NCBI RefSeq assembly: GCF_030013205.1 | Contig: NZ_CP122648.1 | Length of the DNA: 64,000 bases | Direction: 5' to 3' (one strand) | Source: Escherichia coli | GTDB taxonomy: Bacteria > Pseudomonadota > Gammaproteobacteria > Enterobacterales > Enterobacteriaceae | In this document: piece after piece, positions 59,545 to 61,464 of the stretch | Numbering within the stretch: position 1 is the stretch's first letter | How the letters are laid out: every line of letters begins with the position of its first letter | The notes under the pieces: generated by a model | Databases searched by the model: none | The model's input: only the letters and a program-made list of their open reading frames with translations | What the model was told of the DNA's origin: nothing | Position numbers and translations under genes: made by a program

Positions 59545-59650
59545 AACTCCTGAGCAGGCGGCACTATGCCGCTTTCATAGGAGTTCTGAATGCTGGTGCT
59601 TTCTGTATGGCATAACCATGCCTCTAACGGTTAAGTGCCTGCAGCACATG
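59545..59650. repeat. ~100-bp repeat, copy 1 (imperfect hairpin plus conserved tail); overlaps the 3' end of the antitoxin gene
   Basis: About 85% identical to 61362-61464. Confidence 0.55.
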
Positions 59651-59914
59651 TTGCGGATCATTGGCAATCGCTCGCAGCAAAGCCTTTGCAGGCCCAGTCG
59701 GTGAACGTCGCCCCTGCTCCCAGTTACGCAACGTGTCTACGCTTACGGAAATAAGTTCGGCAAATTTAGATTGTGACAACCCTGAAGCGCGGCGTATTTC
59801 TTTGATTTTCATAGCATCAACTTCAAAAGTCCGTGAAGGGTGTCGCGTTCCTTCAATAATTTCATTCATCTGGGCCATGCTGTGAGTCAACCGCTCAAAA
59901 AGTGCCTTATCCAT
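59624..59914 (-). CDS. HigA-like HTH (XRE-family) antitoxin
   Basis: 96-aa translation with HTH (SQSKFAELISVSVDTLRNWEQGRRSP); directly follows the toxin gene. Confidence 0.75.
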   Translation of the reverse strand: MDKALFERLTHSMAQMNEIIEGTRHPSRTFEVDAMKIKEIRRASGLSQSKFAELISVSVDTLRNWEQGRRSPTGPAKALLRAIANDPQHVLQALNR

Positions 59915-60226
59915 TTACCACCTCGTATTTAACAACCGGAGCATTGCTTTTTCCTGGGGAGACAGATCATCTTTAATACCCTTACGATAAATAAGCAGTA
60001 ATCTGATCTCATAATGTTTAACCTGATGAAAGTAAATAACCCTGACACCAGCACGTTTCCCCTTTCCTCCTGACACCCATCGAACCTTTCTTAACCCACC
60101 AGTTTCAGGTATTACCTCACCATAGTCAGGATTCAAGGCCAGGAAAAACTGAAAACGACTGAATTCATCGTCGGTCAGCAGTTTTTGAACATCTTCAGTA
60201 AAAATTTCCGTTTCGATGAAGAGCAT
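59915..60226 (-). CDS. RelE/ParE-superfamily toxin in HigB-like toxin-first arrangement
   Basis: 103-aa translation typical of small RelE/HigB-like toxins; toxin stop abuts the antitoxin start. Confidence 0.72.
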   Translation of the reverse strand: MLFIETEIFTEDVQKLLTDDEFSRFQFFLALNPDYGEVIPETGGLRKVRWVSGGKGKRAGVRVIYFHQVKHYEIRLLLIYRKGIKDDLSPQEKAMLRLLNTRW

Positions 60227-60347
60227 AATTATACGCCATTGGCTTAGAGTAACAATCCTTTTTGTACGTCATTGACGTACCCTTGAAACCACTAGCTTAC
60301 TGATAGTGCTCCAGCAAAACCACGTCTCTGCCGGGTTTGTCTTTACA

Positions 60348-60368
60348 TTTGCGAGGCGCTTTCCAGAT
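60348..60368. promoter_or_regulatory. third copy of the 21-bp module tttgcgaggcgctttccagat, upstream of the toxin-antitoxin operon
   Basis: 20/21 identity with 58226-58246. Confidence 0.4.
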
Positions 60369-60379
60369 TTTTCACGCCC

Positions 60380-61363
60380 GTGAATTTCCCTGTATCCATC
60401 CAGCAAAAACGGGTGTATAAAACTGTACATTCATACAGCAAAATGAGTTCTACTATGGCACTGGAAAAAGGAATTGCAGAGTTAGTCGAAGAGTTTATCG
60501 CTGCGGGTCGCCCCTCATCGCGTCAACAAAGTATTGCGCAGCGCAGGGAGGGCTATATCGCCAGCGCTGTCCTTGCGGGTGAGACAGAAACGCGGGTAGA
60601 TATTCAGACTATCGAACTTGAAGGGATGATCTTACGAATAGTGTCACCGCTGAATGCCCCGACATTACTCCCGACGATAATTTATTACTACGGTGGCTGT
60701 TTTGTTAGCGGCGGGTTCGCAACTCACGACAACCAGCTGCGCCAGTTAGCCTATTACGGGCAATGTCGGGTTATTGCCGTCCAGTATCGGCTGGCACCGG
60801 AACAGACTTTCCCCGCCGCCCATGATGATGCGCAACGAGGTGCAGAATTAGTCTGGCAACACGCCGAACGACTCGGCGTTGATAAACAACGGATAACTCT
60901 TGCCGGTGACAGTGCGGGCGGACATCTGGCGCTGGTAACTGCTTTGCGATTAAAGCGTGCTGGCGAGTGGCAACCGGCACAACTCATCTTAATTTATCCC
61001 ATGCTTGATGCGACTGCGCATTTCGAAAGCTACATACGCAATGGTCACGATTACATCATCACACGCGACACTTTACTGAGCGGCTTTGAGATGTATCTGC
61101 CAGGCATTGAACGCAGGCATCCTGAAGCCAGCCCTCTTTGGCGCGATGATTTCAATGGCTTGCCACCTGTACATATCATTACCGCTGAATACGACCCACT
61201 TTGCGATGAAGGTGAAGCGTTGTATCACCGCATGACAGGGCAAGGAGTGCAATGCACCTGCCAACGCTACCTTGGCGTTATCCACGGATTTTTTCAGTTA
61301 GGTGGTATCAGTGAGGCTGCGCGATCGGCGCTGCGGGATGTGGCCTGGAGAGCGGGAAGGTAA
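60380..61363 (+). CDS. alpha/beta hydrolase fold-3 esterase/lipase (GDSAGG nucleophile elbow, HGGG-like YYYGGCF oxyanion region)
   Basis: 327-aa ORF (GTG start; internal ATGs at 60443 and 60455 are alternative starts); ITLAGDSAGGHLA motif. Confidence 0.7.
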   Translation: MNFPVSIQQKRVYKTVHSYSKMSSTMALEKGIAELVEEFIAAGRPSSRQQSIAQRREGYIASAVLAGETETRVDIQTIELEGMILRIVSPLNAPTLLPTIIYYYGGCFVSGGFATHDNQLRQLAYYGQCRVIAVQYRLAPEQTFPAAHDDAQRGAELVWQHAERLGVDKQRITLAGDSAGGHLALVTALRLKRAGEWQPAQLILIYPMLDATAHFESYIRNGHDYIITRDTLLSGFEMYLPGIERRHPEASPLWRDDFNGLPPVHIITAEYDPLCDEGEALYHRMTGQGVQCTCQRYLGVIHGFFQLGGISEAARSALRDVAWRAGR

Positions 61364-61464
61364 CTCCTGTGAAAGCGGCACTATGCCGCTTTCACAGGAG
61401 TTCTGAATGCTGGTGCTTTCTGTATGGCTTCGCCATGCCCCTCGCAGCTAAGTGCCTGCGCACA
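61362..61464. repeat. ~100-bp repeat, copy 2, beginning with a perfect 18-bp-stem/5-nt-loop palindrome (61362-61402)
   Basis: aactcctgtgaaagcggc-actat-gccgctttcacaggagtt read directly; tail homologous to 59586-59650. Confidence 0.6.

Follow-up and report, generated by a model that had tools for sequence, protein, structure and literature searches.

The direct repeat between yiiE and fabY in Escherichia coli is probably the scar of a join between two haplotypes

In many bacterial and phage mRNAs, translation is repressed by leader hairpins in which an anti-Shine–Dalgarno (anti-SD) sequence pairs with the Shine–Dalgarno (SD) sequence. An E. coli genome contains hundreds of REP elements. Quasipalindrome template switching, which is explained by the Ripley model and is known in E. 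coli from a thyA hotspot and from lacZ QP reporters (PMC7202029), starts from an imperfect inverted repeat and turns it into a perfect palindrome by clustered changes of one arm to the complement of the other. Homology-facilitated illegitimate recombination, with a typical microhomology of 3–10 bp at the joint, occurs in E. coli conjugation and has been described in naturally competent bacteria, too (PMC3240628). In the type VI secretion systems (T6SS) of Vibrio cholerae, arrays of orphan gene ends are reported to result from the sequential displacement of effector/immunity modules (PMC5361080).

The window analysed here, a stretch of 64,000 nucleotides of E. coli DNA, contains two copies of an element of about 100 bp between yiiE and fabY. 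A repeat search recovered this pair, which had been described in the initial annotation, as a direct repeat (59545–59642 and 61362–61459, 98 nt, 88% identity, spacing 1817 bp), and no further copies are present in the window. The features of the region are as follows.

58988–59266, minus strand: ORF2, 92 amino acids, always located downstream of ORF1
59318–59539, minus strand: ORF1, a small basic Cys-rich phrog_4499 protein, frameshifted in the window
59545–59585, minus strand: quasi-palindrome of copy 1 (E1), a two-tier hairpin (RNA ΔG −18.8 kcal/mol)
59586–59623, minus strand: E1 spacer, 38 nt from the antitoxin stop to the hairpin, including a mini-hairpin and the greater part of the 32-nt core common to both copies
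59624–59650, minus strand: antitoxin part of E1, the stop and the last 8 codons of the nadS/HigA-like antitoxin
59624–59914, minus strand: HTH antitoxin of the NadS family, MqsA/HigA-like, 96 amino acids (HTH_3 4e-10; NF041265 60.4 bits, at a cut-off of 60 bits)
59915–60226, minus strand: RelE/HigB-like toxin, 103 amino acids (RelE E = 0.0045, under the Pfam cut-off)
60455–61363, plus strand: alpha/beta-hydrolase esterase (Abhydrolase_3, hormone-sensitive-lipase type), 302 amino acids, divergent from the toxin-antitoxin pair
61362–61367, no strand: junction microhomology AACTCC, 6 bp, common to the A, B and C alleles
61362–61402, no strand: perfect palindrome of copy 2 (E2), a putative relic of the leader hairpin of ORF1 that is not followed by an ORF (RNA ΔG −33.9 kcal/mol)
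61403–61464, minus strand: E2 spacer (61403–61440) and degenerate antitoxin remnant (61441–61464)
61532–63385, minus strand: 617-aa orphan ORF, which marks the B and C haplotypes and converges on the esterase across E2

The palindrome of copy 2 is perfect, as originally noted; however, the 18-bp stem with a 5-nt loop given for it has to be corrected to a 19-bp stem with a 3-nt loop. Its arms (61362–61380 and 61384–61402, 19 nt each) are 100% complementary, and a pattern search returned no chance match in 100 shuffles. It lies right at the end of the esterase gene, whose TAA (61361–61363) overlaps the first bases of the copy. The two copies share a core of 32 nt without any difference (59580–59611 and 61397–61428), and their 3′ tails (59586–59650 and 61403–61464) differ at about 10 of 65 nt, which agrees with the earlier estimate of about 85% identity. 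Copy 1 encloses the antitoxin stop codon and the last 8 of its 96 codons, and copy 2 carries an out-of-frame, degenerate version of the same gene end (61441–61464); both points had been recognised before. Each copy thus consists of the 3′ end of the higB-like/nadS toxin-antitoxin operon, a spacer of 38 nt, and the leader hairpin of ORF1.

The toxin stop and the antitoxin start abut, and the pair corresponds to a type II toxin-antitoxin system by the adjacency of the genes and their family matches. In some records, including that of L010, the toxin is named RelE/ParE family by PGAP. A promoter-like site precedes the toxin gene (60255–60228). The frameshift of ORF1 maps to a run of seven T on the plus strand (59480–59486), where L010, with an intact ORF1 of 70 amino acids, has eight A on the coding strand. 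We know of no function for the phrog_4499 family. PADLOC assigned no defence system to the neighbouring proteins, apart from generic HTH matches.

The hairpin of copy 1 resembles SD-sequestering leaders in several respects. In the minus-strand RNA, an outer stem (AACUCCU/AGGAGUU) is separated by an internal loop from an inner stem (GCGGC/GCCGC). The SD sequence AGGAG (59547–59551) lies in the 3′ arm of this stable stem, 7 nt before the ATG of ORF1 (59539), and is paired with the anti-SD ACUCC in the predicted fold. Stem energies of natural leader variants range from −15 to −24 kcal/mol. Hairpins of this kind are also located in front of ORF1 homologues from other genera and in unrelated surroundings, including two loci that have the hairpin and no antitoxin (L108 and L104). 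The architecture is also kept in homologues of different sequence: four of five distant ORF1 homologues (L104, L110, L111, and L113) have the same two-tier hairpin enclosing the SD, and the fifth (L114) has none. Among close relatives, no compensatory pair was found in the hairpin; with the distant homologues included, five compensatory pairs and eight cells were counted, a result equalled in 0–1 of 500 shuffles, on an alignment that was registered by hand on per-sequence folds and therefore leans towards structure. By its distribution, the hairpin belongs to ORF1 and travels with it rather than with the toxin-antitoxin-esterase block. Judged from geometry alone, it would mask the SD of ORF1 and probably hold translation of this gene low. 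Unlike the established examples, this putative leader has no known trigger, ligand, sRNA, or coupling partner.

Of 5,426 complete E. coli genomes, 3,369 contain the element; it is present in one or two copies, which invariably lie between yiiE and fabY (a third "place" reported by BLAST results from a match of the palindrome to its own opposite strand). In K-12 it is deleted. Three haplotypes were distinguished. Haplotype A (about 2,300 genomes, e.g., L004 and L005) has the order fabY-esterase-toxin-antitoxin-hairpin-ORF1-ORF2. In haplotype B (about 740 genomes; L002, L003, L008, and L012–14), the 617-aa gene replaces everything from the fabY stop up to a point about 25 nt within the antitoxin gene, and the antitoxin tail, spacer, and hairpin remain; the E2-type antitoxin relic is the sole copy in these genomes. 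Haplotype C, the form of the window, combines the A block with the 617-aa gene and occurs in 329 genomes, of which 120 have a perfect copy 2 (C1) and about 209 an imperfect one (C2).

The gene order of Klebsiella spallanzanii (L031) is fabY-esterase-toxin-antitoxin-hairpin-ORF1-ORF2-yiiE-fdhE, and that of Pseudocitrobacter (L032) matches A over the span examined, from the esterase to fdhE. Judged by this synteny, which extends to Salmonella, A is the ancestral form. In Salmonella and Enterobacter, the toxin-antitoxin genes, with or without the esterase, are located between fdhE and fabY, but the short hairpin behind the antitoxin is a different one; the element is thus not a constant companion of the toxin-antitoxin pair. 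Matches on "plasmids" of these two genera are chromosomal fdo/fdhE-fabY segments filed as plasmids, which were used for synteny and not as evidence of mobility. An exact 22-mer of the invariant core had no match in 100,044 species-representative genomes; this negative result carries little weight, since even the E. coli entry among them (L018) has another base at the last position of the 22-mer. The lack of conservation in related genomes considered in the initial annotation does not apply to the hairpin, which is conserved; it does apply to the two-copy arrangement, which is a minority haplotype of E. coli.

The best explanation for haplotype C, to which we assign a probability of roughly 0.7, is an end-to-end join of an A and a B haplotype, which would have duplicated the antitoxin tail and the SD-masking leader hairpin; the spare copy would have been perfected later. 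Single-copy alleles of the locus exist in thousands of genomes. The toxin-antitoxin-esterase block of C is 98–99.3% identical to A alleles, and its 617-aa gene is 96–98.9% identical to B alleles. The junction reads ggTAACTCC|ggacc in A (eight of eight distinct A-type alleles examined), caaAACTCC|tgagc in B, and ggTAACTCC|tg in all C alleles, that is, the left side of A and the right side of B. The esterase stop of A (ggTAACTCC) would accordingly have been joined to the first bases of the B hairpin (AACTCC). A microhomology-mediated illegitimate join on one side and ordinary homologous recombination on the other would give this structure; integration of a circularised 1817-bp A segment would be an equivalent route. 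The tail-spacer-hairpin segment is common to both haplotypes; after the join it would therefore be present on either side of the toxin-antitoxin-esterase block, as a direct repeat. The recombination scar considered in the initial annotation is supported by the boundaries of the repeat, which coincide with the illegitimate junction at the esterase stop and with the end of the allelic homology between A and B.

The join compares well with homology-facilitated illegitimate recombination: the joint of 6 bp falls within the range of 3–10 bp (PMC3240628), the other side would lie in ordinary homology (on the fabY or the yiiE side), as expected from flanks that are 96–99% identical to A on the left and to B on the right, and a block of DNA would have been gained beside the resident one. 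The difference is that two alleles of one locus would have taken part here, which results in the direct repeat of their common segment. Moreover, the event is reconstructed from sequence alone, and a Campbell-type circular route would yield the same product. The V. cholerae T6SS arrays, as reported (PMC5361080), are similar in that an incoming allelic module is added beside the resident one, with relics and repeated junctions; the system, the genes, and the scale differ.

The left parts of C1 and C2 are 99.6–100% identical to each other, which, together with the rarity of C (329 of 5,426 genomes), indicates a recent single origin of this haplotype. C1 and C2 differ at three positions in the relic part of E2; these differences require either subsequent recombination or another event. 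The sequence of the antitoxin relic diverges from the live gene end by about 24%; this exceeds simple decay since a recent event and counts against the explanation by an A/B join. A derivation of A from C by simple deletion was rejected because C lacks the 63 bp that separate esterase and fabY in A.

The opposite polarity is unlikely, although it is the competitor that fares best: C would be old, its repeats would be deletion substrates, homologous recombination of E1 with E2 would have given rise to B, possibly more than once, and the window would show the undeleted ancestor. The divergence of 12% between E1 and E2 suggests age, and the single copies of B are mosaics. L013 combines an E1-like CATAACC with a tail of the E2 type, CATCGCC is present in L003 and L014, and L002 resembles E2 over its whole length; some B alleles could therefore stem from an E1 × E2 deletion in a C-like ancestor. 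However, the S− deletion, which affects ORF1/ORF2, is present in all of the six B alleles that were examined and in the A(S−) alleles, whereas C lacks it, and no B allele with intact ORF1/ORF2 was found among the sampled matches. The synteny of the A arrangement with other genera, the rarity of C, and the near identity of its left half also argue against an old C.

An A/B join would account for the presence of two copies; the perfect stem of copy 2 is, by comparison of alleles, a recent derived state. The E2 of C2 (L007, L011) has the B-type sequence of L002. Relative to C2, copy 2 of C1 has three substitutions and one insertion within 6 nt of one arm, all of which match the opposite arm. GAGCAG-CGGC, which C2 alleles have at the same junction, was converted to GTGAAAGCGGC; in the wider context, TGAGCAG-CGGC became TGTGAAAGCGGC, the exact complement of GCCGCTTTCACA in the other arm, which is unaltered. 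The rewritten arm comprises 61370–61379 on the plus strand. All 17 natural leader variants are imperfect, and in no genome searched was a perfect palindrome present in the ORF1-leader position (best match 96.3%). With no ORF behind it, copy 2 was free to change, and in one sub-lineage a single quasipalindrome template-switch event would have perfected it. The imperfect inverted repeat as the starting point and the clustered changes of one arm to the complement of the other, resulting in a perfect palindrome, are as described for this type of mutation (PMC7202029). In contrast to the reporter events, the present case is a polymorphism of natural populations that is fixed in about 120 sequenced genomes, and the event, its strand, and its genetic requirements are deduced rather than observed.

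Selection on the RNA is an improbable cause of the perfect stem. Copy 2 would then act as a bidirectional transcription barrier or as a 3′-end stabiliser of the convergent esterase and 617-aa genes, and it is located exactly between these ORFs. The predicted fold is very stable (−33.9 kcal/mol alone; z-scores of −6.2 and −6.7 in context). Nevertheless, in about 209 of the 329 genomes that share this gene order the stem is imperfect, and the one-arm, exactly templated changes are a mutational rather than a selective signature. A U-tract is absent on both strands: as reported earlier, no T-run follows the stem, which is succeeded by CTGAATGC on the plus strand and ACCTTCCC on the minus strand. 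On the minus strand of copy 1, the stem is followed only by UUUU-AC, and because two of these U's sit in the stem, it would be a weak terminator at best; in K. spallanzanii, the U-run is absent. A promoter/terminator scan flagged neither copy. Of the RNA processing or stability element proposed initially, a role in RNA holds in the form of the conserved leader, which lies on the other strand and putatively masks the SD of ORF1; the link to the esterase does not.

The imperfect palindromes at both boundaries of the toxin-antitoxin-esterase block, the existence of single-copy "empty" sites, and the label "transposase" given by PGAP to the neighbouring 617-aa ORF are reminiscent of an attachment or recombination site of a mobile cassette, similar to attC of integrons, or of a transposon end. 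We regard this origin as highly improbable. The annotation shows no integrase or recombinase in the fdhE–fabY interval, and scans of six ORFs there against Pfam and NCBIfam detected no recombinase domain. The block is located on the chromosome and keeps its synteny in other genera, where a second copy of the element is lacking, it occurs singly and not in a cassette array, the plasmid matches are the misfiled segments mentioned above, and the hairpin goes with ORF1 and not with the cassette. The variant with the hairpin as transposon end was rejected: the 617-aa ORF has no transposase domain and no match in PDB or PADLOC, its homologues are restricted to Escherichia/Shigella, and the hairpin occurs without this gene in other genera.

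A dispersed family of small repeats that had escaped recognition, either REP/BIME-like or MITE, retains hardly any probability: the element is palindromic, extragenic, and about 100 bp long, and like REP it places an imperfect palindrome of about 40 nt just past a stop codon, but it has at most two copies per genome at a single locus in 5,426 genomes, it lacks terminal inverted repeats and target-site duplications, and Rfam 15 returned no match for 58800–61700 on both strands at E ≤ 1, so that the miniature repeat family suggested at first is not supported and the statement that the element is not REP stands.

As a side product of recombination in a hypervariable region rich in toxin-antitoxin remnants, the repeat attributed to the A/B join carries little functional weight. 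A broader interpretation of the quasi-palindrome is speculative and rather unlikely. It might belong to a previously undescribed, family-wide cis-regulatory leader, a two-tier anti-SD/SD hairpin with a conserved inner stem (GCGG(C/U)...(G/A)CCGC), that controls phage-derived Cys-rich phrog_4499 genes and ORF2 and in Enterobacteriaceae is perhaps coupled to the upstream HigB-type mRNA interferase. If so, cleavage by the HigB-type toxin in the conserved spacer might, for example, free the SD, and the duplicated, perfected copy 2 would be a natural "locked-off" derivative of the leader.

The finding is ordinary but instructive. The parents A and B, the recombinant C2, and the later derivative C1 all survive in sequenced genomes, which makes the locus a clean natural example: the joint at 6 bp of microhomology and the putative conversion of a quasipalindrome into a palindrome can be read from population data. 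The perfect version occurs only in the copy without its gene and in none of the 3,369 functional leaders, which argues that the native mismatches are kept by selection. The repeat also points to a conserved, putatively SD-masking leader of an uncharacterised phage-type small-gene pair, which adjoins a HigB-like toxin in several genera.

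A repeat search of the window, in which the chromosomal gene order is fdoI-fdhE-yiiF-yiiE ... fabY, detected direct repeats of 98 nt at 59545-59642 and 61362-61459 (88% identity, spacing 1817 bp) and a perfect inverted repeat (61362-61380/61384-61402); no comparable match was found in the shuffled window sequence. The initial annotation had rightly described the two-copy element and its perfect palindrome, but the stem comprises 19 bp with a 3-nt loop rather than 18 bp. Both copies, E1 and E2, share an identical core of 32 nt, and their tails are approximately 85% identical, as claimed. 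E1 covers the stop and the last eight codons of the antitoxin gene, which is preceded by a gene for a 103-aa RelE/HigB-like toxin. E2 starts within the esterase stop codon and ends in the remnant of the antitoxin coding end, which is degenerate and frameshifted. The spacer also contains a minus-strand mini-hairpin (59605-59623 vs 61424-61440), GGCAT-GGTT-ATGCC in E1 and ATGGC-GAA-GCCAT in E2; the differing register adds further clustered differences that preserve structure.

Features of the fdhE-fabY interval in the window
57890-58147, minus strand: yiiF, CopG/RHH orphan antitoxin
58351-58596, minus strand: yiiE, CopG/RHH orphan antitoxin
58191-58269 and 58630-58708: 79-nt repeat containing the 27-nt motif
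58220-58246, 58659-58685, and 60342-60368: 27-nt motif, TTT(A/G)(T/C)(A/T)TTTGCGAGGCG.TTTCCAGA
59318-59539, minus strand: ORF1, basic and Cys-rich, 70 aa when intact (MTRNRAERRHH...CICSCWMCGH...)
59624-59914, minus strand: HTH antitoxin of the NadS/MqsA-HigA type, 96 aa
61532-63385, minus strand: 617-aa ORF, homologues in Escherichia/Shigella only

The genome-wide count called for by the initial annotation gave one or two copies per genome in 3,369 of 5,426 complete E. coli genomes. They invariably overlapped or adjoined one of three genes of the yiiE-fabY interval (nadS, the esterase gene, or the 617-aa ORF), and an occasional third BLAST hit was a self-match of the palindrome to the other strand. 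A dispersed or miniature repeat family, one of the options proposed earlier, was rejected on the basis of this copy number, the single interval, and the lack of an Rfam match. The interval occurs in several allelic haplotypes.

Haplotypes of the yiiE-fabY interval
A-type, approximately 2,300 genomes (L004, L005): yiiE-(ORF2-ORF1)-E1-antitoxin-toxin-esterase-63 bp-fabY, one element copy
B-type, approximately 740 genomes including O157:H7 and strain 042 (L002, L003, L008, L012-L014): a single element preceding the orphan 617-aa ORF, its antitoxin part a degenerate relic; neither toxin-antitoxin pair nor esterase
K-12 type: element removed by a further deletion that reaches from ORF2 into the 617-aa ORF at its 5' end
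C-type (window), 329 genomes: both blocks, two element copies

Further rearrangements were observed. In E. coli ECNB21-M121 (L009 2601-3700), an IS5/ISKpn26 insertion beside the hairpin truncates the element, and in yet another haplotype (L108) unrelated genes adjoin the hairpin with its spacer. Several breakpoints of independent origin fall close together, within approximately 100 bp upstream of ORF1.

According to the sequence comparisons, the C haplotype appears to consist of the left part of A joined to the right part of B. The ORF1/ORF2 segment of the window is 96.4-98.7% identical to A alleles retaining it (it is deleted in others, e.g. L005), and for the toxin-antitoxin-esterase segments the identity to A alleles is 98-99.3%. 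B alleles match the window at 94-99% identity in E2, the 617-aa ORF, and the spacer to fabY. The esterase gene is followed by ggTAACTCC|ggaccagg in eight of eight distinct A-type alleles examined, the hairpin of B alleles starts with ...caaAACTCC|tgagcag, and all C alleles read ggTAACTCC|tg..., so that comparison of the three junctions places the novel joint within a microhomology of 6 bp. Homology between A and B ends approximately 25 nt into the antitoxin gene, which is also where the repeat has its right end. Since the joint and this end of homology account for both boundaries of the "100-bp element", the earlier suggestion of a recombination scar was essentially right. We propose that C arose through one illegitimate joint, with ordinary homologous exchange at the opposite side. 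The joint matches the pattern of homology-facilitated illegitimate recombination, which uses microhomologies of 3-10 bp and was observed in E. coli during conjugation (PMC3240628). The outcome would be no different if an A segment of 1817 bp had circularised and then integrated. Among C alleles, the left halves share 99.6-100% identity, more than with any A allele, which fits a single, recent origin.

The ancestral arrangement appears to be A. The order in Klebsiella spallanzanii is fabY-esterase-toxin-antitoxin-hairpin-ORF1-ORF2-yiiE-fdhE, and the stretch compared in Pseudocitrobacter vendiensis, from esterase to fdhE, is identical in order. Salmonella has fdhE-antitoxin-toxin-esterase-(second higBA)-fabY and Enterobacter fdhE-antitoxin-toxin-fabY. 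The 63-bp esterase-fabY spacer of A (L004 5066-5128; ttttcagattgaaaacc) is similar to a Salmonella region (L015 4220-4300) with repeated ttttca..ttgaaaac boxes upstream of the second higB/higA pair and is probably a relic of such a lost pair. The main alternative, in which deletion between E1 and E2 of an old C-like ancestor gave rise to the B alleles, is favoured by the mosaic composition of the B elements. However, this synteny, the rarity and uniformity of C, and the ORF1/ORF2 deletion common to B and some A alleles but absent from C argue against it. There is no support for a mobile cassette or transposon end, as the interval contains no recombinase, the "transposase" label of the 617-aa ORF lacks domain support, and the block is syntenic across genera.

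In its native place, the hairpin lies on the minus strand 38 nt past the antitoxin stop and directly before ORF1, with AGGAG (59547-59551) in its 3' arm and the ATG 7 nt further on. The hairpin accompanies ORF1 and not the antitoxin, as it is also present behind other upstream genes (L108; L104, after a phage-type primase). Distant ORF1 homologues (L104, L110, L111, L113) in unrelated contexts and with differing sequences share the same two-tier hairpin, in which an outer ACUCC.../...GGAGU stem encloses the Shine-Dalgarno sequence (SD) and an inner stem is formed by GCGG(C/U)/(G/A)CCGC; none was found at the homologue L114, located 12 nt behind its upstream gene. Compensatory changes were not found among close relatives. 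With the distant homologues, both sides were changed in five pairs and eight cells, a level reached in 0-1 of 500 shuffles, although the hand-registered stem alignment is fitted to, and thus biased towards, the structure. Because the SD is located in the 3' arm and the hairpin is kept with ORF1 homologues, we read the hairpin, with moderate confidence, as a translational leader that sequesters the SD. A terminator is unconvincing: only four U's follow the hairpin in E. coli and none in K. spallanzanii, and the terminator scan did not flag it.

The perfect palindrome of E2 is best read as a later, templated mutation. Among 19 distinct hairpin versions from E. coli haplotypes, other genera, and metagenomic relatives, all 17 preceding an ORF1 are imperfect. 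C alleles with the imperfect form (C2; L007, L011) carry AACTCCTGAGCAG-CGGC ACTAT GCCGCTTTCACAGGAGTT, a palindrome identical to that of the B-type L002, whereas those with the perfect form (C1; window, L001, L010) have AACTCCTGTGAAAGCGGC in place of the AACTCCTGAGCAG-CGGC arm. The two differ in one arm only, where a stretch of six positions holds three substitutions and an insertion of 1 nt, and each change brings this arm to the exact complement of the unchanged one. A chimeric query for the perfect palindrome in the ORF1-leader context, searched against all genomes, retrieved at best the natural imperfect leader (96.3% identity). The predicted RNA stability increases from -23.6 to -33.9 kcal/mol. 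Nevertheless, a selected role of the perfect stem as terminator or stabiliser is unlikely, because it is present in 120 genomes while approximately 209, the majority with the same junction and gene arrangement, have the imperfect form.

ORF1 is intact in L010 (A8 on the coding strand) and frameshifted in the window by a 1-nt homopolymer change (T-run 59480-59486, A7), so that the 73-aa "hypothetical protein" of the annotation joins two frames. ORF1 matches the phage family phrog_4499, with relatives in 219 clusters, and no Pfam family. Similar ORF1/ORF2 pairs occur in phage- or island-like contexts (L104 62-1694; L113; L114), namely behind a phage-type primase, in the vicinity of an AbiGi gene, and close to genes for Rem, DUF968, and a DNA methylase, which suggests that the E. 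coli pair is a domesticated or decaying mobile-element remnant. No match to the 617-aa ORF was found in Pfam, PDB, or PADLOC. PGAP divides it into a "transposase" and a pseudogene, while it is one open frame in the window; K-12 retains no more than its first ~40 codons, annotated as a pseudogene.

Taken as a whole, the fdhE-fabY interval appears littered with the remains of toxin-antitoxin modules. In some E. coli strains (L014 944-1560) and in Pseudocitrobacter (L032 4775-5427), the yiiF homologue has retained an adjacent VapC toxin gene. The 27-nt motif, which precedes both yiiF and yiiE and recurs in the promoter region between the divergent toxin and esterase genes, may serve all of them as an operator or promoter.

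The feature is a new instance of known processes and not a new kind of element, apparently combining the illegitimate joining of two alleles, the correction of a quasipalindrome, and a leader that masks the SD. What interest remains is modest and concerns the leader conserved ahead of the uncharacterised ORF1/ORF2 pair.
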